DNA of 64,000 bases from an uncultured Candidatus Saccharibacteria bacterium (GTDB taxonomy: Bacteria; Patescibacteriota; Dojkabacteria; J137), in the NCBI GenBank assembly GCA_965230975.1, contig OZ246402.1:165771-229770 (forward strand). The letters are read 5' to 3'. Each line of letters begins with the position of its first letter. Within the stretch, counting starts at the first letter, position 1. The notes under the pieces were generated by a model, which saw only the letters and a program-made list of their open reading frames with translations, had not been told where the DNA came from and did not search any database. Positions 23,710-57,734 of the stretch are shown in pieces. A program made the translations under genes and the position numbers.

Positions 23710-26700
23710 TCACCACCTACTATACATCAAAACTTTATGATCTTCAGCTGTTTTTGGTACCTCGTTCCAAATATATTGTGTAATAAATGGAATGAACGGG
23801 TGCAACATTTTCAAGTACTCTTTCAAAACATAAACCATTGTTAAAACTACCTCTTGTCGTATTTTTGCATCTGGTTCCGAAATTATTGCACCACTTTCTC
23901 TATCTTTAACTGTGTTTATAAATGGTTTTGATTCTTCTATTAGTACATCACAAAATGTTTTCCAAAATTCTTCGTACAATGTTTCTGTTGCGTAACCAAA
24001 TTCATAAGCGTCAACGTTTTTTGTAACTTTTGATTTCACCTGCTTAATGTGCTCAACTAATTTGATCGAAAATTCGTTTGATACTTTTTCTGCATCAAAG
24101 TTTGCTGGCTCTACTCCTTCTGCATTTGTAAGTACAAATCTGCTAGCATTCCAAATCTTATTCATGAATTGCTTAAAGTTTTTTAGCTTGTCGTATGTGA
24201 TTGCATAATTTCCGCCTGCTTTGTTTTGGTAAAAGTAAACCATTCTTACTGCGTCAGTTCCATATTCACTAACGATTTTGTCCATATCAATCATGTTGCC
24301 TTTAGATTTACTCATCTTTTGTCCATCTGTTCCTAAAACTAACCCTGTTAAGAATAAGTTTTCAAATGGAATTTGCTTGTCATGAAAGTAGGTAAACATC
24401 ATCATTCTTGAATCCCAGTTTTCTAAAATATCATGTGCGGATACTAAAACTTTTGTAGGGAAGAATGTGTCTTTTAAGTTGTGAGCTTGTAAAGTTGCAT
24501 AAACCCATTGTCCACTGCTAAACCAAGTGTCTAAAACGTTTTCGTCTTGATGCCATTCGGAAGTATTAAGTTCTAAGTTATAAGTTGTGAGATCTTTTTG
24601 TGGCTCAAATACAAAAGTAATCTTTTCTAGGTTATCGTGAGGTTTATTAACAATATCTTTGTAATCTCTATCTTTTAGTTTGTTTTCAAGTGTTCTTAAT
24701 ACTCCACCATGAGTCACGATTAATACCTTATTACCTTGATATTTTGTTTTAATCTCTTCGAATGCTCTTAAGATTCTCGATTCAAAGTTAGGGATTGTTT
24801 CAATATTGGCTTTTTCGGGGTGGTTATCAACCAAGTCGTAAATATCATTTGCAAATTCCGGGAATTTTTTAATGGCCTCTGCTCTAGTTAATCCTTCAAA
24901 GTCCCCAAAGTTCTTTTCTCTTAAGTTGGAATCTTTAATTATCTTGCTTTTATCAAAACCTATTTTGTCTGCAATTATCTCTGCAGTTTGAATCGCTCTA
25001 TTTAAATCTGAGCAAATAATGTAGTCATAGCATTCTGTGGATTCAAAATTTCTTGCTTGCTCTTTTCCTTTTTCTGTCAAATCAGTATTTGTATGACCAC
25101 CGAATCTCTTTTCAACATTAGCAATTGTCTCACCATGTCTAATAACATCAATAATTGTTGAATCAGGATTATGTAGCTGTACTCTTAAATGATTAGGGTT
25201 GTCGTATTCAAGTGGAATCCAATCTTGATTTTGCCTTTTTTCTCTTTTCATTTGAATCATATACAATTCTCCAGGTCCTTCTTTTCGACCTTCAACTGGG
25301 TATTCTTCAAATCCAAATTTTAAATAGAACTCTTTTAAATTAGCTTTTTCAGGGGTTGCAATGTGTATCTCTAGTTTATCACCAAAATCATCTAAAACTT
25401 TATACATTAATAGTTTACCCACTCCCTGTTTTTGATACTGCTTGCTTACATAAATATTTAGCCAATGTATTCTATCTGTATCCCTGATATTTTCTAAATC
25501 AATCCAACCAATAACTTCCCCATCTTTTTCTGCAATAAATACGATATTGTTTTCATCAATAATCATATCTTGATACTCTTTTATCTTTTCAAGATCATCC
25601 GATTTTCTACCATATTTATTAGCAATAACTTCTGCAGTGACACCTCTCTCTTCGTCAATAAAACTTTGCATCCAACCTTGAACATCAATCTCGTGCATGA
25701 TTGATGCATCTTTGAGTTCAGCTTTACGAATAGTGATGTCGCTGTGTGTATAAAAAGGCTTTGTTAGCCTAATCAGTTCTCTAACCTGTCCATTTTCATC
25801 AATTTCTTCTTTAATTTCTCCGTGGTACCAAACTGGTAATCTGTAACCCCACCAAAGGCTTCTTGAAATTGCCCAATCTCTTAGGTTTTCCATCCAGTGG
25901 TTAAATTTATCTACCATGTTTTCTGGGTGAATAGTAACTTGGCCATTTTTTACCATTTCTATTGCAGCCTGCTTTATGTTGTTTTCTGGAGTGTCGTATT
26001 TTAAATACCATTGAGAAGATAGAATTGGTTCAATTAAAGCTCCTGTTCTTTCAGATTTATTAATACTTTGTTTAATAGATTCCTCTTTAATTAAGTATCC
26101 TTCATTTTTCAAATCTTCGATTATTAAATCTTTAACCTTAGTGTATTTTTGATTCCTATACTTTTCAGGTACATAATCACTTACAAGCATTAGATTGCCA
26201 TCGATAATATTTCTGGCTGTAATTGATTTGTTAGGATTCTCTTTGTTCCATTCAAGCATTGTTTGATAGTCATCTTGAGAGTGTGCAGGAGTAATTTTTA
26301 GTGCTCCAGTTCCAAAGTCTGTTAAAACTTTATAGTTAGTAATAATTGGGATTTTAATATTAGTTAAAGGAATAATAACCTCTTTACCAACAATATCTTT
26401 GTATCTAGGGTCAGATGGATTAACCGCTACTGCTGTATCTCCAAACATCGTTTCCGGTCTTGTTGTTGCAACAGTTACAGATTTAGAACTGTCATCTGCA
26501 AACTTATATTGAAGATAGTAAAGTTTCCCGTCTCTCTCCTCTCTTACCATTTGATTATCTGCAACTGCTGTTCGTGCTTTTGGGTCCCAGTTAACAATTC
26601 TTACACCCTTATAAATCATACCTGCTTTATACATTTCTACAAATGTATTTAAAACAGTATCTACAACTCTTGGGTCTAATGTAAAAATATTTCTGTCATA

Positions 26701-27162
26701 ATCTGCCGAAAGACCAATATGCTTTTCATCATTCATTGCAATCTCCATATTCTTTTTAAAGAACTCCATCATCTCGGCATAAAAATCCTCTCTAGTCATA
26801 TCAAACTTGTTTCTACCCTGCTTTTCTAAAACATCTCTAATAAAAACGCCTTCACCTTCAAGCCCAGCATGATCTTTACCCGGCAAAACTAAAACTTTCT
26901 TACCCTGCATTCTGGCATATCTAGCCATTGCATCTTGATAAGCGTAACCGGAAATGTTTCCAATGTGAGGCCTTGCATAAGCGTTTGGCGGCGGACAAAT
27001 TAATGCCCATGGTTCTCTTGGATCTGCCTTCATCTCTTCAACTGACATTAATTTGTCCGTTGTAGGATTGTATTCAGGCTTGTGATAGCCGTTATTAAGC
27101 CATAAATCTAAAATTATCTTTTCGTATTCTGTTGGGTTGTATGGACCTTGTGGTAGTGACAT
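23710..27162 (-). CDS. valS: valyl-tRNA synthetase carrying an internal GNAT + histidine-phosphatase insertion
   Basis: CPPPNAYARPHIGN (HIGH), the CP1 editing domain TTRPETMFGDTAVAVNPSDPRY, NHWMENLRDWAISRSLWWGYRLPVWY, DENVLDTWFSS and GQKMSKSKGN identify ValRS. Between PVWY (aa ~446) and DVLDTWFSS (aa ~877) there are ~425 aa, where E. coli ValRS has ~35. There is no C-terminal coiled-coil. Confidence 0.9.
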   Translation of the reverse strand: MSLPQGPYNPTEYEKIILDLWLNNGYHKPEYNPTTDKLMSVEEMKADPREPWALICPPPNAYARPHIGNISGYAYQDAMARYARMQGKKVLVLPGKDHAGLEGEGVFIRDVLEKQGRNKFDMTREDFYAEMMEFFKKNMEIAMNDEKHIGLSADYDRNIFTLDPRVVDTVLNTFVEMYKAGMIYKGVRIVNWDPKARTAVADNQMVREERDGKLYYLQYKFADDSSKSVTVATTRPETMFGDTAVAVNPSDPRYKDIVGKEVIIPLTNIKIPIITNYKVLTDFGTGALKITPAHSQDDYQTMLEWNKENPNKSITARNIIDGNLMLVSDYVPEKYRNQKYTKVKDLIIEDLKNEGYLIKEESIKQSINKSERTGALIEPILSSQWYLKYDTPENNIKQAAIEMVKNGQVTIHPENMVDKFNHWMENLRDWAISRSLWWGYRLPVWYHGEIKEEIDENGQVRELIRLTKPFYTHSDITIRKAELKDASIMHEIDVQGWMQSFIDEERGVTAEVIANKYGRKSDDLEKIKEYQDMIIDENNIVFIAEKDGEVIGWIDLENIRDTDRIHWLNIYVSKQYQKQGVGKLLMYKVLDDFGDKLEIHIATPEKANLKEFYLKFGFEEYPVEGRKEGPGELYMIQMKREKRQNQDWIPLEYDNPNHLRVQLHNPDSTIIDVIRHGETIANVEKRFGGHTNTDLTEKGKEQARNFESTECYDYIICSDLNRAIQTAEIIADKIGFDKSKIIKDSNLREKNFGDFEGLTRAEAIKKFPEFANDIYDLVDNHPEKANIETIPNFESRILRAFEEIKTKYQGNKVLIVTHGGVLRTLENKLKDRDYKDIVNKPHDNLEKITFVFEPQKDLTTYNLELNTSEWHQDENVLDTWFSSGQWVYATLQAHNLKDTFFPTKVLVSAHDILENWDSRMMMFTYFHDKQIPFENLFLTGLVLGTDGQKMSKSKGNMIDMDKIVSEYGTDAVRMVYFYQNKAGGNYAITYDKLKNFKQFMNKIWNASRFVLTNAEGVEPANFDAEKVSNEFSIKLVEHIKQVKSKVTKNVDAYEFGYATETLYEEFWKTFCDVLIEESKPFINTVKDRESGAIISEPDAKIRQEVVLTMVYVLKEYLKMLHPFIPFITQYIWNEVPKTAEDHKVLMYSRW
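24583..25161 (-). other. histidine-phosphatase (phosphoglycerate-mutase-like, branch 1) domain embedded in valS, about aa 668-860
   Basis: IIDVIRHGETIANVEKRFGGHTNTDLTEKGKEQAR carries the RHGE catalytic His motif. ICSDLNRAIQTAEII and LIVTHGGVLRTL supply the second catalytic His motif. Confidence 0.7.
25243..25725 (-). other. GNAT (N-acetyltransferase) domain embedded in valS, about aa 480-640
   Basis: IVFIAEKDGEVIGWIDLE...HWLNIYVSKQYQKQGVGKLLMYKVLD...ANLKEFYLKFGFEE is the GNAT beta4-alphaC acetyl-CoA-binding Q/RxxGxG/A motif plus a C-terminal YxxxGF. Confidence 0.7.
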
Positions 27163-27360
27163 GGTACGTTCAATAACAATTATTTATTACTGAGGACGGG
27201 TATTCCGTGGTACCACCTCTATTCTCTTGATTGAAGATCAAGACTTATTTCTTAAGCTGTAACGGGCTTGTCCCGAAAGATTCTACTTTTGGTTACTCAA
27301 TTTCTTTCTTTCACTTTCCAAGTGACGTTTCTTGGATATTGCGTGTTAGTTGAATTATAC
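27163..27360 (-). promoter_or_regulatory. valS 5' leader with a T-box-like antiterminator element; candidate -10 TATAAT at 27354-27359 on the minus strand
   Basis: Minus-strand RNA reads ...GAAUAGAGGUGGUACCACGGAAUACCCGUCCUCAGUAAUAAAUAAUUGUUAUUGAACGUACC-AUG. GAGGUGGUACCACGG matches the T-box consensus AGGGUGGNACCGCGG in 12 of 15 positions. It folds as helix A1 GAGG/CCUC, a 7-nt bulge UGGUACC (N = U, complementary to discriminator A73 of tRNA-Val), and helix A2 ACGG-AAUAC-CCGU. Upstream hairpins include UCUUGAU-cuuca-AUCAAGA, CGGG-acaag-CCCG and CCAAG-n8-CUUGG. Confidence 0.5.
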
Positions 27361-39138: not shown

Positions 39139-42100
39139 TTATGAAATAGCTGCAGGTTCTTCTATTTTTGCGTTTTCATCAAAATCAATTAATGTTTCGC
39201 CATAGTGAGACCTTACATTCCCGCTAATTTTTTCTTGTAAAACTTCTCCAACTGGAATTGGACGTCCGATTATAACATTTTCTTTCAATCCTCTCAAATG
39301 ATCTACTTTACCAATAAGGGCTGCGTCGGTTAGAACCCTAACTTGTTGCTCAAATGATGCTGCAGATAAGAAGCTTTCTGTTCTTAAAGCTGCGTTTGTA
39401 ACACCCATAATAACTCTTTCGAATTTAGCAATCCTCTTTCCTTCTGACCCTAATTTTTGATTTTCTACCATTACGTCTAGAATATCAACATAGTCTCCTG
39501 GTAAGAATAATTCGCTATCTCCGCTATCTTGAATTAAGGCGTATCTACTCATTTGTCTTGCAACAATTTCCAAGTGCCTGTCATCTGCTTCTAAACCTTG
39601 AATACCGTAAACATCTTGAACTTCTTTAATAACATACTTTTGTGCATCGGTTACAGATCTTAGTTTTGCCATTTCTTTAGGATCAATAGATCCAATTGTC
39701 AATTGAGTACCCTTTTCTACATGTTGTCCATCTTGTACTAGTAAGCTAATCATTGAATCTGCTTCTTTTTCTACTTCCATATCTTTTTCGGTTACTAGAT
39801 CTATACTGTTTTTGCTAACAGATGCTACTCCAGTGAAATCTGCCTTTATATCTTTACCACTCTTCTTGCCTAATAAGTCGCCAGCCTTTACCTTTGCACC
39901 ATCTTTTATAGCAATATCTTCTGCAGAATCAAATTCATATTTTTTATGAACTTTCTTTTTATCTGCAATTCTTATTGTTACTTTCTTCTTATCTTCTACA
40001 ATTGTTACAGTACCAGAAATATCGGCTAATAATGCTAATGCCTTTGGAGTTCTAGCCTCAAGTAATTCCTCTACTCTTGGTAAACCTTGAGTAATGTCGG
40101 ATTTTGCAGCTCTAGCGTCAGATTTACTTTTTAGTGTTAACTGAGTTGTTGGTTCTCCAAGGGCTTGAGATGCAATTGTACCAACTGCTTCTCCAATATT
40201 GATAATTTCTCCGGTACCGTTATCTACACCGTAACACTTAATACACATTCCATGGGCTTTTTCACAAGTTAATGGACTTCTAACTTTCACTTTTGTAATA
40301 TTCTCGTTTTCTGCAATTTCTTTTGCTATTTTTGGTGTAATGTATTCATTTCTTTTAATCACAATCTCTCCAGTTTTACTATCTGCCAAGTCTTCTGCAA
40401 CAAATCTACCTTTAATTCGGTTTGCATAAGCTTGAAGTCTAGCTTCTGATTTATCTATAAATATTCCGTTTTCTGTACCACAATCTTCTACATTTACTAC
40501 AACATCTTGAGCTACGTCATGCAATCTTCTAGTTAAGTAACCAGAGTCTGCTGTTCTTAGCGCAACATCTGCGAATGATTTTCTTGCTCCTCTTGCAGAT
40601 ACAAAGTATTCAAAGCTTGATAAACCTGATTTAAAGTTACTCTTAATAGGTAAATCTACGATATTACCTGTTGGGTCAATAACGTATCCACCTACTCCAG
40701 AGATCTTTTTAACCCAAGCACTTACTGGAGTTGCTCCAGACTGGTCAAGGTCAACCAAGTTCTTTGAGTTTTGTTTTGCAATGCTCCAAACTTCGCTTTG
40801 TAGCTTGTCTGCTGCATCTGCCCATTGCTCTCTTTTTAACCACTTTAATTCGTTTAATGTGATTAAACCTTCGTTGTATTGCTCAATAAGTTTGTTTTCT
40901 ACATCTGCAAAGTTTTCTAATCTAGTCTTTAGTTCATCATTTGCACCAAATTCAAATTCTTCCATAGAGATTGACAATCCGTGTTTAGCAGCATATTGGA
41001 AACCTAAAGTTTTAATTTCGTCTAATACTCTAATCGCCTCATCTCTACCATATCTATCAAAGATATTTGCAGATATTTTAGAAATATCACTTTGGTTTAA
41101 TGATTTGTTTACAAATTCATAGTCGCTAGGTAGTGCTTTGTTGAAAATTGCTCTACCAGCTGTTGTTACAATAACCTCACCATTTAAAAGTAATTTAATT
41201 GGATCGCTAAAGCTAATTTTTCCGGTATAGTAGTCTGCAATTGCTGATTCATCTGATGAATAGAATCCAACTGGGTTAGCTTCGTTTCCTTCTAGTTTTG
41301 TTAAGAAGTAAATACCCATGGCCATGTCAAACTTTGTGTGAATCAAAGGTGACCCGTCTCTTAAAGATAAAATATTATCTTTAGCAAACATTCTCTTTTT
41401 AACTTCTTCAATAGAAGCTTCTGAAAGTGGCAAATGAACTGCCATTTGGTCTCCGTCAAAGTCAGCGTTAAAACCTTTACATGTAATTGGGTGCAATCTA
41501 ATAGCGCTACCTTCTATTAATACTGGGTAGAAAGCCAAAATAGATTGTCTGTGTAAGGTTGGAGCTCTGTTTAGTAAAACAGGGTGGTCTTTACTTACAT
41601 CTTCTAAAATATCCCAAACGTCATCTGACTTGCTTTCAAATACAAGCTTTGCCCTTGCAGGGTTTGCTGCATATCCTCTAGCAATTAATTCTCTGATAAT
41701 GAATGGTTTAAATAGTTCTAATGCAATTGTTTTTGGTAAACCACACTGGTCAAATCTTAATTCTGGACCAGCAACAATTACTGCGTTTCCAGAGTAGTCT
41801 ACTCTTTTACCCAATAAGTTTTGTCTAAATCTACCTTGCTTACCTCTTAACATGTCAGATAATGATTTAAATGGCATGCCTCTTGAGTTTAATGAAGGTG
41901 ATCCTGGTTTGTGATTATTATCTAATAAAGAGTCAACAGCTTCTTGAAGCATTCTTTTTTCATTTCTTAAAATGATTTCAGGTGCTCCTAATGCGATTAA
42001 TCTTCTTAATCTATTGTTTCTGTTAATTACTCTTCTATATAGGTCGTTTAAGTCGTAAGTAGCAAATCTACCTCCTGGTAATTGAACAATTGGTCTTAAA

Positions 42101-43086
42101 TCTGGAGGAATTACAGGTAGTATATCCATTATTATTGCAGATGGATTTACGCCGGATTTTCTAAGTCCTTTAAGAATTCGAACTCTTTGTACTAATCTGC
42201 TTCTTTTCATTGCAGATTTGCTTACAGCAAGCTCTGCTTCAATTGTTTCAATTTCTGCATTTATATCTAGCTTTAATAAAAGCTCTTTAATTGCTTCTGC
42301 ACCCATTCCTGCCTCATAAAAGTAGAATGCATATCCGTCTAATAATTGAAACTCCTCTTCTGAAAGAGTTGTTCCAAGTCTCATGTCTTCAATTAAATTC
42401 TTGATATCTGTGAACTTTTTATCAATATTTTCTTCTCTTTGTTTGTATGCAGATTTTATTTTTGCAGCTTCTACTTTTTCTGAATTTCTTAATCTCTCTA
42501 ATTGCATTTCTGCTTTTGATTTATCTTTGTTAGCTTTTCTTACATCTTCTGATTCTTCTTCAAACCTTGCTTTATTTTCGTTAATTTTTGATTCTAATTC
42601 TGTTGCAAGCTCTTCAACTTCTGTTTTTTTGTACTCTTCTAGGTTTTCTAAAGCTTTTTTTCTATCTTCTTCGTTGATTGTGGTTACAACATATCTTGCG
42701 TAATAAATTACGGTTTCAATTTTCTTTTGAGGGATATCTAAGATCAAAGAAAGTCTATTAGGTACACCATTAGAGAACCAAACATGTGCGATTGGAGCGG
42801 CTAGTTTAATGTGACCCATTCTCTCTCTTCTTACTCTTTTGTGCGTTACTTCTACTCCACATCTATCGCAAACGATACCTTTGTATCTAATCTTTTTGTA
42901 TTTTCCGCAATAACATTCAAAATCTCTAGTTGGACCAAAGATCTCTTCTGCCATCAATCCTCCTGGTTCTGGCTTGAATGTTCTATAGTTGATTGTTTCC
43001 GCCTTTGTTACCTCTCCATGAGACATATTTAGTATGTCTTGGGCAGAAGCGATTGTTATCTTGACTGCTGTAAAATCTTTTAACAT
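39139..43086 (-). CDS. rpoC: DNA-directed RNA polymerase subunit beta'
   Basis: 1315 aa. NADFDGDQMAVH catalytic motif and conserved beta' blocks throughout. Confidence 0.95.
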   Translation of the reverse strand: MLKDFTAVKITIASAQDILNMSHGEVTKAETINYRTFKPEPGGLMAEEIFGPTRDFECYCGKYKKIRYKGIVCDRCGVEVTHKRVRRERMGHIKLAAPIAHVWFSNGVPNRLSLILDIPQKKIETVIYYARYVVTTINEEDRKKALENLEEYKKTEVEELATELESKINENKARFEEESEDVRKANKDKSKAEMQLERLRNSEKVEAAKIKSAYKQREENIDKKFTDIKNLIEDMRLGTTLSEEEFQLLDGYAFYFYEAGMGAEAIKELLLKLDINAEIETIEAELAVSKSAMKRSRLVQRVRILKGLRKSGVNPSAIIMDILPVIPPDLRPIVQLPGGRFATYDLNDLYRRVINRNNRLRRLIALGAPEIILRNEKRMLQEAVDSLLDNNHKPGSPSLNSRGMPFKSLSDMLRGKQGRFRQNLLGKRVDYSGNAVIVAGPELRFDQCGLPKTIALELFKPFIIRELIARGYAANPARAKLVFESKSDDVWDILEDVSKDHPVLLNRAPTLHRQSILAFYPVLIEGSAIRLHPITCKGFNADFDGDQMAVHLPLSEASIEEVKKRMFAKDNILSLRDGSPLIHTKFDMAMGIYFLTKLEGNEANPVGFYSSDESAIADYYTGKISFSDPIKLLLNGEVIVTTAGRAIFNKALPSDYEFVNKSLNQSDISKISANIFDRYGRDEAIRVLDEIKTLGFQYAAKHGLSISMEEFEFGANDELKTRLENFADVENKLIEQYNEGLITLNELKWLKREQWADAADKLQSEVWSIAKQNSKNLVDLDQSGATPVSAWVKKISGVGGYVIDPTGNIVDLPIKSNFKSGLSSFEYFVSARGARKSFADVALRTADSGYLTRRLHDVAQDVVVNVEDCGTENGIFIDKSEARLQAYANRIKGRFVAEDLADSKTGEIVIKRNEYITPKIAKEIAENENITKVKVRSPLTCEKAHGMCIKCYGVDNGTGEIINIGEAVGTIASQALGEPTTQLTLKSKSDARAAKSDITQGLPRVEELLEARTPKALALLADISGTVTIVEDKKKVTIRIADKKKVHKKYEFDSAEDIAIKDGAKVKAGDLLGKKSGKDIKADFTGVASVSKNSIDLVTEKDMEVEKEADSMISLLVQDGQHVEKGTQLTIGSIDPKEMAKLRSVTDAQKYVIKEVQDVYGIQGLEADDRHLEIVARQMSRYALIQDSGDSELFLPGDYVDILDVMVENQKLGSEGKRIAKFERVIMGVTNAALRTESFLSAASFEQQVRVLTDAALIGKVDHLRGLKENVIIGRPIPVGEVLQEKISGNVRSHYGETLIDFDENAKIEEPAAIS

Positions 43087-56172: not shown

Positions 56173-56718
56173 ATGGAAAATTTAATATTAATTAGGCACG
56201 GAGAAACAGGTGATAATAAATCAGATCCTAAAAGAGCTTTAACTAAAGAGGGTCAACGAAAAGTTGGGGAAGTAGCTTTATTGTTATCTAGAAATTTTAA
56301 AGATAAAGAATTTTTAATTTTAACCACAGATACTTATAGAGCTGTTCAAACGTCCAATATTCTTGCAAAAGAATTGACTGTTAATAAAATAGTAAAATCA
56401 AAACTTAGAATTTTGAACTTAGATAATTTGAGATCTATAATTCAATCAAATGAAAAAAAAAGAATCAGACCTGCTAAAACCTATTTGAGTATGCCAGACA
56501 ATCAACTGAAAGAATTAGAAGTAGAAACCTCTGATCAAGTTTTTAACAGATGGACAAAATTAATTAAGGATTTTAAAGCTAAAAACGTTATAATTGTTAG
56601 TCATGAATGTTCTCTAGAAGCTTTTTTATCAAAACAAAAGGGCTATACCGTGATTCGTAAATCCTTTAAAAAGTACTTTAATTATGGTGATTTCGCAATA
56701 TTAACAAAAAAAATATGA
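56173..56718 (+). CDS. histidine-phosphatase superfamily protein (SixA/phosphoglycerate-mutase-like)
   Basis: [31 protein letters not shown] carries RHGE. The second catalytic His is in [13 protein letters not shown]. Overlaps the trpS start by 4 nt. Confidence 0.7.
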
Positions 56719-57734
56719 ATAATATAAATAATAAAAAACCAAGAATACTAACTGGTGATAGACCAACAGGCAAACTACACCTTGGTCATTACGTTGGCTC
56801 TTTAGCAAATAGAGTTAAACTTCAAGATGAATACGATGAATTTATAATGATTGCAGATGTACAAGCTTTAACCGACAATTATGACAATCCTCAAAAAGTT
56901 AGAGATAACCTACTAGAAGTAGCAATGGATTACTTAGCTGTAGGTATTGATCCAACAAAAACAACAATTTTTGTACAATCACAAATTCCAGAAATTGCAG
57001 AACTAACAGTCTTTTTTATGAACTTAGTAACACATGCTCAAGTTTTAAGAAACCCAACTGTAAAAACTGAAATAATAGAAAAAGGATTTGGAGACACTAC
57101 TCCATTTGGATTTGTAGCCTACCCAGTAAGTCAGGCTGCAGACATCCTATTTTTAAAAGCAAGCTTAGTACCGGTTGGAGCCGATCAAGCACCAATGTTA
57201 GAACTTGCAGATGAGATAGGTCAAAGATTTAACCGAACATACAACACAAACATCTTCCCACGGGTAAAAGGATTGTTTGGAGAAATCCCAAGATTAATTG
57301 GTACAGATGGTCAAGCAAAAATGAGCAAATCTATTGGAAACACAATTTATTTGTCAGATTCTACAGAGATAGTAAAAGAAAAGGTAATGAAAATGTACAC
57401 AGACCCAAACAGAAAGAAATCAACAGACCCTGGAACCGTAGAAGGCAACCCCGTATTTATTTATCATGATGCCTTTAACCCAGATAAGGCAGAAGTTGAG
57501 AATTTGAAAGCAAGATACAAGGCAGGGACAGTTGGAGATGTAGAGGTTAAACAAAAACTAGCAGTTGCAATTAACAACTTTTTAGACCCAATAAGAGAAA
57601 GAAGGTCTAAATACGAACAAAACCCGGAACTTGTTAAAGAGATTTTAGAAAAAGGCATAGAAAAAGCTAGTATAATTGCAAAAGAAACTATGCAAGAGGT
57701 AAAGTCTGCAATGAAAATAGACTATTTTAAATAA
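56715..57734 (+). CDS. trpS: tryptophanyl-tRNA synthetase (bacterial type)
   Basis: [16 protein letters not shown] (HIGH-type), [17 protein letters not shown] (compare E. coli GIDPEKSTIFVQSHVPE), [10 protein letters not shown]...VPVGADQ, KMSKS. Confidence 0.9.

Follow-up and report, generated by a model that had tools for sequence, protein, structure and literature searches.

The valS locus and its product

The DNA analysed here, referred to at its full length as the window, is a stretch of 64,000 nucleotides of contig OZ246402.1 from an uncultured Candidatus Saccharibacteria bacterium (GenBank assembly GCA_965230975.1; GTDB lineage Patescibacteriota; Dojkabacteria; J137). The gene of interest is valS, on the reverse strand, which encodes a valyl-tRNA synthetase (ValRS) with a GNAT acetyltransferase and a branch-1 histidine phosphatase (HP) inserted into its connective polypeptide 3 (CP3; CP1 and CP2 likewise denote the connective polypeptides of class Ia synthetases). 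The features of the locus are listed below in window coordinates, with residues (aa) of the product aligned where possible to the T. thermophilus ValRS structure (1GAX); relatives are designated by P numbers (proteins) and L numbers (loci).

23710..27162, minus strand: valS open reading frame (ORF), 1150 aa, ATG start, a ValRS host with two nested enzyme domains
25825..27162, minus strand: ValRS aa 1-446, comprising the first half of the Rossmann fold, HIGN, the CP1 editing domain (TTRPET..., GTGALKITPAHS), CP2 and the CP2-3 linker RDWAISRSLWWGYRLPVWY; 1GAX 33-418
25771..25824, minus strand: native CP3 beta-hairpin, aa 447-464 (HGEIKEEIDENGQVRELI), found in all insert-free relatives; modelled strands 444-454 and 460-466
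25222..25770, minus strand: insertion at sub-site A, aa 465-647, a PaiA-like GNAT with its fold at about 476-640, the motif QKQGVG and short linkers; supported by Pfam, the indel, homologues and the AlphaFold2 (AF2) model
25159..25221, minus strand: native CP3 middle element, aa 648-668 (WIPLEYDNPNHLRVQLHNPDS); modelled strands 648-650 and 659-661
24559..25158, minus strand: insertion at sub-site B, aa 669-868, a branch-1 HP of the CobC/PspA/PhoE-like type of about 200 aa; supported by Pfam, conservation, dN/dS and superposition
24541..24558, minus strand: native last strand of CP3, aa 869-874 (EWHQDE), with W870 and Q872 invariant; strand 870-872
23710..24540, minus strand: ValRS aa 875-1150, comprising NVLDTWFSS, the second half of the Rossmann fold, KMSKS and the anticodon-binding helical domain; 1GAX 447-693
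27189..27342, minus strand: predicted T-box leader (RF00230) with a much shortened Stem I, specifier hairpin at 27318-27335, GUC (Val) at 27324-27326 and conserved core AGAGGUGGUACCACGG

A sequence-only reading of the window had described valS as one uninterrupted frame of 1150 aa, and this was borne out: the frame contains no stop and no frameshift, and the ORF listing shows no opposite-strand ORF of at least 60 aa inside it. Pfam matches on the protein comprise tRNA-synt_1 (E=8.7e-91, in two matched stretches, the best at aa 45-462), Acetyltransf_1 (aa 524-618, E=3e-14), His_Phos_1 (PF00300; aa 673-855, E=5.5e-41, 140.8 bits against a cutoff of 21.7), Anticodon_1 (E=1.2e-18) and a fragment of the class Ia editing domain, the complete GNAT and complete HP being found within 24547-25824 (aa 447-872), where they had been predicted. 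The assignment of the ORF to ValRS was upheld by the valS equivalog model TIGR00422, which was matched at 641.9 bits (cutoff 612.1) despite an interruption of 380 aa; NF004349 (NCBIfam) was matched at 685.6 bits, just under its cutoff of 704.

The loop between PVWY and NVLDTWFSS measures 428 aa here, against 28 in T. thermophilus (1GAX), 50 in insert-free relatives and 31 in E. coli (measured between PAWY and DVLDTWFSS); the earlier estimate had been about 425 aa where E. coli has about 35. On alignment with 1GAX, aa 49-448 and 871-1134 correspond to residues 33-418 and 447-693, and about 422 residues replace the 28 of Thermus. The motifs quoted in the sequence-only reading (QKQGVGKL, YLKFGFEE, RHGET, THGG and PVWY) are all present, but the motif that follows the loop is NVLDTWFSS and not DVLDTWFSS. 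The ValRS core keeps its catalytic and editing motifs, with KMSKS (aa 949-953) invariant in ValRS relatives and the CP1 editing motifs TTRPET and GTGALKxTPAH retained relative to 1GAX, and both inserts keep their cofactor-binding or catalytic residues. The class I HIGH motif reads HIGN, with Asn for the second His (window 26965-26976, aa 66-69); so it does, whether or not inserts are present, in nearly all of the Dojkabacteria clade (74 aligned relatives).

The possibility that the arrangement is an artefact or a selfish element (a chimeric assembly, a pseudogene in decay, or an intein-like or transposon-borne insert that is excised post-translationally) could draw on the unusual length and composition of the protein and on a weak terminator-like hairpin at the 5' edge of the GNAT insertion (25770-25756), but is extremely improbable. 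Exactly the same 1150-aa protein is found on a contig of 39.5 kb in a Logan assembly made independently (SRR12762303) and on an NCBI contig of 1.19 Mb, and the insertion sites are common to dozens of relatives. An AF2 model calculated with 74 homologues gave a mean predicted local distance difference test score (pLDDT) of 91.3 and a predicted template modelling score of 0.81, with both inserts confidently folded and pLDDT below 50 at two junction linkers alone (aa 470-472 and aa 861-866). Together with a dN/dS of 0.17 and the conservation of catalytic residues described below, these observations led to the rejection of an assembly chimera or a pseudogene. An intein or a transposon was likewise rejected, as the sequence-only reading had held for the intein: no intein/Hint or endonuclease domain is among the Pfam matches of the protein, no direct or inverted repeats flank either insert, and the junctions (...ELI/RLTKPF..., ...QNQD/WIPLEY, ...PDS/TIIDV... 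and ...NTS/EWHQDE, the slash marking the boundary) are not of the splicing type. Promoter-like and terminator-like matches inside valS are not above chance.

The hairpin itself, followed by a T-run (AGGCTAACAAAGCCT TTTTAT; window 25756-25770, minus strand), coincides exactly with the first codons of the GNAT insert (RLTKPFY) and may be what is left of non-coding DNA that preceded a donor GNAT gene.

Gene identity, synteny and predicted T-box leader

Wherever a source names them, the 120 best relatives of the window protein are ValRSs of Candidatus Dojkabacteria (WS6; candidate phyla radiation (CPR)/Patescibacteria); related metagenome-assembled genomes are labelled 'Saccharibacteria' in some third-party annotation records. 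The closest insert-free protein, P0013 (L092), is encoded in the same gene order as in the window (radical-SAM, methyltransferase, valS, Transgly_assoc), which makes the window gene orthologous to a regular valS, not a paralog. On the basis of the TIGR00422 score, the motifs, synteny and a predicted Val T-box, it is assigned as a housekeeping-type valS.

The T-box-like leader noted upstream of the gene gave a full-length match to RF00230 (46.7 bits, E about 3e-9). The score is under the gathering threshold of 93, Stem I having shrunk to 19 nt where the model has 86 positions. Its specifier hairpin, CCAAG-AAACGUCA-CUUGG, presents GUC (Val), then A. In four relatives, with and without ValRS inserts, valS is preceded by homologous predicted T-boxes (L004 1278-1473, L007 832-1021, L092 5380-5563 and L093 5448-5599); leaders of this short-Stem-I type score 42-58 bits against the gathering score of 93 and are therefore missed by standard annotation. 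A scan of the whole window (1-64000) with Rfam gave no family at its gathering score (no tRNA, rRNA or known riboswitch). No obvious intrinsic terminator was seen between the T-box core and the start codon, no dedicated terminator or sequestrator analysis having been made, and control may therefore be translational. In the insert-free relatives L092 (5604-6023) and L093 (5622-5981), a PF05635 gene (23S_rRNA_IVP / Avd-like four-helix bundle) lies between the T-box and valS, and in L092 it overlaps the valS start; the window has no such gene.

Two insertions in different turns of CP3

In published IleRS domain boundaries, CP3 follows the CP2-3 linker (RDWxxSRxxxWG) and joins the second half of the Rossmann fold (PMC7191050, PMC7955072); its topology and zinc content vary between solved IleRSs (PMC7191050), and the CP2-3 linker helps to line the tRNA 3'-end pocket in yeast IleRS (PMC7955072). 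In ValRS, CP3 was located by alignment at 1GAX residues 418-447. In the window protein it is a mini-sheet of four to five strands between the CP2-3 linker (...WAISRSLWWGYRLPVWY) and NVLDTWFSS. Insert-free relatives almost always have exactly 50 aa from LPVWY to D/NVLDTWFSS, with the consensus GE(V/I)xEEIDxxGxVxxxI....WxPLEYxNPNH(L/M)RVQxExPGEGWxQDE.

The sequence-only reading had treated the extra sequence as a single GNAT plus HP module. This part of it did not stand, as the GNAT occupies the beta2-beta3 turn (sub-site A) and the HP the beta4-beta5 turn (sub-site B), and between them lies the element WIPLEYDNPNHLRVQ (within W648-S668), which is native to the 50-aa CP3 subdomain and is found at loop positions of about 30-38 in nearly all 50-aa native loops. 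In the AF2 model the native CP3 pieces form short strands, while the inserts form separate, confident globular domains on short flexible linkers. The closest relative, P0010 (86% core identity), has the HP (60% identical) and carries SSGGSEN in place of the GNAT, a clean in-frame indel of 183 aa against 7 aa at sub-site A. Because the native element separates the two domains and P0010 has the HP alone, they are not one module but two independent nested insertions in different turns of CP3. P0014 has a GNAT and an HP both at sub-site A, before the native element, and its arrangement thus differs from that of the window. A pre-formed GNAT-HP module was also rejected as a source, since the scanned two-stretch matches of about 410 aa (P0131 and P0136) are tandem HP-HP proteins.

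The GNAT domain

The inserted segment matches a whole free-standing GNAT of 172 aa end to end, with linkers of about 8 aa added, and scores 53.7, 52.6 and 50.3 bits with Acetyltransf_1, _7 and _10 of Pfam (cutoffs 20.7, 27 and 23.6). Its coenzyme A (CoA) motif Q-x-x-G-x-G reads QKQGVG, both glycines of which are at least 90% conserved in the embedded GNAT family, and block-mean pLDDT values are mostly about 88-97 across the fold. The embedded family has an invariant N-terminal G-W-x-x-x-F motif of its own and falls into two subtypes, each with free-standing homologues of 169-175 aa; no conserved small partner (antitoxin-like) gene lies beside the latter, and the window GNAT is itself embedded in valS. 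A further GNAT site in P0104, which would be a third, was not used, as the domain is below cutoff and its position uncertain. The contig that encodes the free-standing P0165 also has, at L008 3794-6772 (minus strand), a run of three genes: a metG-like gene for a class I synthetase (498 aa), a free HAD hydrolase gene (202 aa) 4 nt downstream of it, and tatD, which abuts the HAD gene. Here too, then, a small hydrolase accompanies a class I synthetase gene.

A profile of the GNAT family, built from 13 members, was searched against all PDB sequences and gave 97 matches, of which the best 60 were listed. The best solved relatives are PaiA-type polyamine acetyltransferases (1TIQ and 3K9U/3NE7, E=4.7e-9 to 2.7e-7), matched over nearly the full length of the embedded GNAT family, together with the uncharacterised 8OSP; RimI, SpeG, AAC, PAT and similar proteins are among the others of the best 60. 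The embedded GNAT differs from PaiA in that it is far below the cutoff of the PaiA equivalog NF053587 (30.3 bits against 250, in a full-length alignment) and is not a member, and in that the G-W-x-x-x-F motif belongs to the embedded family. Every match to an NCBIfam GNAT model is far under its cutoff, Acetyltransf_3 (RimL/MccE type) is matched marginally (E=0.02-0.07), no homology to MshD was detected (E=0.11), and the PADLOC anti-phage defence families gave no match.

The identity of the GNATs shows no correlation with that of the host cores (r=0.09). P0031 and P0028, with cores 50-53% identical to that of the window protein, carry GNATs that share 59% identity with the window GNAT, but for P0011 and P0015, the nearest GNAT-bearing hosts with cores 64-65% identical, the figure is just 34-37%. 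The cassette was therefore exchanged or acquired separately from the host gene, and on these identities it did not co-diverge with its ValRS.

A GNAT beside the active site of a synthetase invites a coupling through acyl-CoA. ValRS and IleRS aminoacylate CoA-SH, and GNATs use acyl-CoA (reviewed in PMC5370406); ValRS could make Val~S-CoA, which the GNAT would use, or use acetyl-CoA, to acylate an amine in a non-ribosomal valyl or N-acyl transfer, by analogy with MshC (a CysRS paralog) and MshD (a GNAT), with the HP finishing or recycling a phosphorylated acceptor. The retained CoA pyrophosphate motif Q-x-x-G-x-G and the tethering of the GNAT beside the active site agree with this scheme, as does D911, the conserved equivalent of T. 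thermophilus ValRS D490, which has been proposed as the base of the thiol subsite (a mapping of D490 onto E. coli ValRS was rejected, since residue 490 is Pro there and the numbering is that of T. thermophilus). However, D911 is conserved in all ValRSs and is not diagnostic, GNAT-bearing ValRSs are a minority (about 13 of the 120 clusters) with close sisters that have no GNAT, the same GNAT family occurs free-standing with no synthetase neighbour, and GNAT and HP co-occur inconsistently. We consider such a coupling very unlikely.

The histidine phosphatase domain

The HP has its full catalytic set (R675, H676, N683, R-x3-TA, E-K/R and H822), and conservation of the six canonical positions (R, H, N, R, E and H) is at least 95% among 28 copies embedded in ValRSs, whose mean identity is about 40%. 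Across these 28 domains HP identity follows core identity (r=0.75). Comparison with P0010 gave a dN/dS of 0.17 for the HP and 0.07 for the ValRS core, from which the HP is judged to be under purifying selection.

The best superpositions were obtained with CobC (6E4B), PspA (4IJ5) and GpgP (4PZ9), with TM-scores of about 0.75 and root-mean-square deviations of about 3 Å, and structurally the domain fits phosphatases of about 200 aa better than mutases of 250 aa. It lies under every NCBIfam equivalog cutoff, with 107-109 bits for CobC TIGR03162 (cutoff 162.9) and 61-62 bits, at partial coverage, for the dPGM model TIGR01258 (pgm_1; cutoff 81.7).

Insertion hot spots across the lineage

The 120 closest ValRS protein clusters were aligned to a profile derived from the 32 shortest. 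Inserts were found at the CP3 site (profile position 480) in 44 of the 120 clusters, and at a second site at the start of CP1 (profile position 226), unused in the window protein, in 66. The CP3 inserts belong by Pfam to GNAT, His_Phos_1, YdeN-type Ser_hydrolase (PF06821, with the HSLG nucleophile motif) and a HAD-like unit, alone or in the combinations GNAT + Ser_hydrolase, GNAT + HP, GNAT + HAD-like and Ser_hydrolase + HP. The CP1-site element, of about 114-125 aa and no Pfam family (e.g. P0044; site users among P0023-P0121), is extended by an ASCH-like domain in P0012, P0075 and P0077 or a HAD phosphatase in P0094 and P0113. The census comprised about 30 architectures, CP1-site labels being approximate, and 38 of the clusters were insert-free. 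Whether the insertion is lineage-wide, a check raised by the sequence-only reading, thus has a divided answer: the sites are used across the lineage, but the window arrangement of GNAT at sub-site A and HP at sub-site B is confined to the window protein. Insert-bearing and insert-free proteins are repeatedly sisters on the ValRS core tree.

On this evidence CP3 and the start of CP1 are permissive hot-spot loops of Dojkabacteria ValRS, at which single-domain enzymes have repeatedly been gained, lost and exchanged, the families concerned being GNAT, HP (one to four copies), YdeN-type serine hydrolase, HAD and ASCH-like. An origin by fusion of neighbouring operon genes was rejected because no GNAT, HP or hydrolase gene adjoins valS in insert-free relatives.

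The same loop is used in a paralogous enzyme. An exhaustive HMMER search with the insert as query identified type-2 IleRSs with one to four tandem HP domains placed exactly between WAISRNRYWGTPLPIW and DVLDCWFES, in the homologous CP3; one HP-bearing IleRS is from Candidatus Peribacteria, and P0168 passes the ileS equivalog cutoff. We take the recurrence of HP in IleRS CP3 to be the real evidence for an association of HP with class Ia synthetases. CPR type-2 IleRSs with two to four tandem HPs in CP3 include P0140 (1161 aa), P0168 (1468 aa), P0133 and P0132. A further HP follows KMSKS in P0162, and P0235 (771 aa) is made up of three HP domains in tandem, no part of a synthetase having been detected in it. 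P0132 (1007 aa) and P0274 (491 aa) share a contig and may together represent P0275 (1484 aa) in split or frameshifted form.

Two further explanations bear on this pattern. MccE and RimL acetylate aminoacyl-nucleotide antibiotics, and HipA and HipT phosphorylate GltX and TrpS. The inserts might accordingly be guard or immunity domains at the mouth of the synthetic site, directed against agents that target class Ia synthetases, which would acetylate or hydrolyse aminoacyl-adenylate mimics or reverse toxin modifications (of the kind of HipA/HipT-type phosphorylation of class I synthetases), with turnover reflecting an arms race. Such a role would account for the patchy, fast turnover of unrelated hydrolase and transferase families at one site, the exchange of the GNAT independently of its host, the recruitment of HP to the same loop in IleRS and ValRS, and the maintenance of catalytic residues in both domains, and CP3 comes directly after the linker that lines the tRNA 3'-end and inhibitor pocket (PMC7955072). 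Against it, the GNAT belongs to Acetyltransf_1/7/10 and not to the RimL/MccE-type Acetyltransf_3, with PaiA-like proteins as its nearest solved relatives; the HP is of the small-molecule phosphatase subgroup; there is no PADLOC match; and no toxin or antibiotic gene context was seen at the loci examined. A guard function is accordingly regarded as improbable, though a more serious candidate than the coupling through acyl-CoA.

Lysine acetylation is known to regulate bacterial synthetases, and the inserts might act in cis, with the GNAT acetylating ValRS lysines (e.g. in or near KMSKS) or the HP dephosphorylating ValRS, charging thereby being tuned to acetyl-CoA or phosphate status. The covalent tethering of both domains near the active site and their retained catalytic residues fit such regulation. 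In no search, however, was the GNAT related to Pat/YfiQ-type protein acetyltransferases, the diversity of the inserts (serine hydrolase, HAD, ASCH) is ill suited to one regulatory logic, and insert-free sisters exist. Regulation in cis is held to be highly doubtful.

Other features of the window

The sequence-only reading had also pointed to a free HP gene joined by overlap to trpS:

56173-56718, plus strand: free histidine phosphatase, 181 aa (RHGETGDN ... SHE), His_Phos_1 E=1.3e-12
56715-57734, plus strand: trpS, its start overlapped by the HP stop (ATGA)

The overlap of the HP stop with the trpS start is present as described, but no HP gene lies within 1.5 kb of trpS in any of the 80 closest trpS loci, and a conserved association was rejected on this count. 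The pairing is idiosyncratic and looks specific to this genome, and the free HP shows no more than a distant relationship to the embedded HP (26 bits). The trpS argument for a non-accidental association of these domains with synthetases accordingly fell, while the association itself finds other support in the HPs of IleRS CP3 and the lineage-wide hot spot.

These results also bear on the mechanism that the sequence-only reading had put forward, in which Val-tRNA-Val would be N-acetylated or otherwise modified on the enzyme in the manner of TacT, AtaT and ItaT, with the HP acting on a 2'/3'-terminal phosphate or a phospho-intermediate. The GNAT does share a polypeptide with the enzyme that produces Val-tRNA and is placed next to the pocket for the tRNA 3' end, and HP recurs in class Ia synthetases. 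The link to the toxins was nevertheless not upheld, as no toxin named TacT, AtaT or ItaT is among the best 60 of the 97 solved-structure matches, where PaiA-like proteins lead. A cell that depends on this one T-box-regulated valS would presumably be poisoned by N-acetyl-Val-tRNA, a dead-end product. The closest relatives have no GNAT, the HP-trpS pairing is not conserved and the HP resembles small-molecule phosphatases. Modification of Val-tRNA-Val is considered still less probable than coupling through acyl-CoA or regulation in cis.

Elsewhere in the window, RpoC (39139-43086, minus strand) matches the 312-position profile of its domain 1 over aa 3-424 and the 267-position profile of domain 5 over 821-1191, which suggests lineage-specific insertions of about 100 aa that belong to no Pfam family. 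Large ORFs of 672, 520, 506 and 457 aa also match no Pfam family.

Interpretation

The reading that we favour, with modest confidence, is that of a working ValRS which hosts autonomous accessory enzymes in a permissive loop, these not being needed for charging. The ValRS part would charge tRNA-Val as usual; the GNAT would act autonomously as an acetyl-CoA-dependent enzyme with a small-amine acceptor, and the HP as an autonomous phosphomonoesterase. Synthesis and dosage of both would be tied to valS and its T-box, and both would be tethered next to the mouth of the synthetic site, so that the polypeptide would, we infer, comprise three enzymes in one chain. Because sister proteins and the syntenic ortholog are without them, the inserts are probably accessory and not required for aminoacylation.

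Several points weigh against a host with independent passengers. We infer the autonomy of the passengers only from their dispensability in relatives and from free-standing homologues, and functional coupling would explain equally well why HP recurs in one and the same loop of two paralogous enzymes and why both CP3 ends are anchored beside active-site elements (PMC7955072). All trees are neighbour-joining trees only; in that used to ask whether the P0009/P0010 HP has a common origin with the other ValRS HPs or was acquired separately (bootstrapped, trimmed core, 60 replicates), its sister group consisted exclusively of free-standing HPs in 24 of 60 replicates and included ValRS HPs in about 23 of 60. 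RpoB and RpoC of the window contain no such enzyme inserts, and a genome-wide habit of nesting enzymes in large proteins was rejected on this ground.

A coupling of the inserts to the ValRS active site is thus possible. In its broadest form, CP3 and CP1 of CPR class Ia synthetases would be a dedicated and rapidly exchanging cassette dock, whose catalytically active enzymes sit at the entrance of the synthetic site and act on synthetase ligands, either for immunity or detoxification against toxins and aminoacyl-adenylate antibiotics that target synthetases or as a GNAT that uses Val~S-CoA for non-ribosomal valyl or acyl transfer. This we regard as unlikely, though a shade less so than the guard function taken by itself.

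Comparison with known systems

Like the host with accessory enzymes proposed here, the class Ia synthetases IleRS, ValRS and LeuRS nest a complete hydrolytic domain in the Rossmann fold, through CP1 editing and CP2/CP3. CP1, however, is an ancient, universal and integrated proofreading domain, whereas the inserts described here are lineage-restricted, interchangeable, drawn from unrelated families and missing from sisters. A 2026 survey of domain insertions lists aminoacyl-tRNA synthetases (aaRSs) as favoured hosts and mentions them only as hosts of editing domains (PMC13114784).

The NCBIfam model NF040702 (ileS_w_GNAT) likewise combines a class Ia synthetase and a GNAT in one polypeptide, but its host is IleRS, and the window protein scores 136 bits against its cutoff of 1999. 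Mapping of P0168 and the window protein onto the model placed its GNAT N-terminal of position 491, with a CP3 region (about positions 654-697) of normal length, whereas the window GNAT lies in CP3. It is the only database precedent found for a GNAT in a class Ia synthetase, and a search for literature on ileS_w_GNAT found no paper. Full-text literature searches also found no description of GNAT, HP or hydrolase insertions in the CP3 of ValRS or IleRS, in keeping with the sequence-only reading, to which no such described architecture was known.

Short branch-1 HPs such as CobC (6E4B), the phosphoserine phosphatase PspA (4IJ5), GpgP (Rv2419c; 4PZ9) and PhoE (1H2E) share fold, size and catalytic residues with the window HP; they are free-standing, whereas the window HP is embedded in a synthetase and below the equivalog cutoffs. 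MshC and MshD (mycothiol synthesis) and LysX (LysRS-MprF) are functional pairs or fusions of an aaRS and a GNAT. In these, too, a ligase of class I synthetase type and a transferase of GNAT fold act together on an activated amino acid, but they are paralogs or terminal fusions with a fixed partner, whereas the window shows variable cassettes nested in a housekeeping enzyme. The known inserts of RNA polymerase are mostly non-catalytic structural folds. The lineage-specific ones of its bacterial beta and beta' subunits (e.g. BEAN/HABAS; PMC11515920) are likewise polyphyletic and recur at permissive sites of an essential information-processing enzyme; the inserts of the window type differ in being complete, catalytically intact enzymes of metabolic type that turn over between close relatives.

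The finding is thus of a known kind, domain accretion or insertion in synthetases, but its anatomy and cassette-like turnover would surprise a synthetase specialist.

Implications

Public records already hold such proteins, unremarked or misnamed: insert-bearing ValRSs (P0098, P0067, P0086, P0104 and P0078) are named 'HAD-IA family hydrolase', 'hypothetical protein' or 'class I tRNA ligase family protein'. Under such names valS can look missing and a phosphatase or acetyltransferase like a free gene, and metabolic reconstructions could miss valS and miscount hydrolases.

The aaRSs are among the most conserved and most studied enzymes, and their known accretions are either editing domains of ancient origin or terminal appendages in eukaryotes. 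In the present case a housekeeping ValRS of a bacterium accommodates two whole foreign enzymes in a 50-aa subdomain beside its active site, and a whole lineage uses the CP3 loop, that of IleRS included, as a slot in which members of at least five enzyme families are exchanged. For protein engineering this provides a natural map of insertion-tolerant sites in class Ia synthetases, and for domain evolution a case study of insertion and exchange in the very small genomes of CPR bacteria. Should the domains act on ligands of the synthetase, they would represent a new mode of synthetase protection or aaRS-coupled chemistry, and if CP3 and CP1 do serve as a cassette dock, a housekeeping synthetase would double as a platform for hypervariable defence or secondary chemistry.

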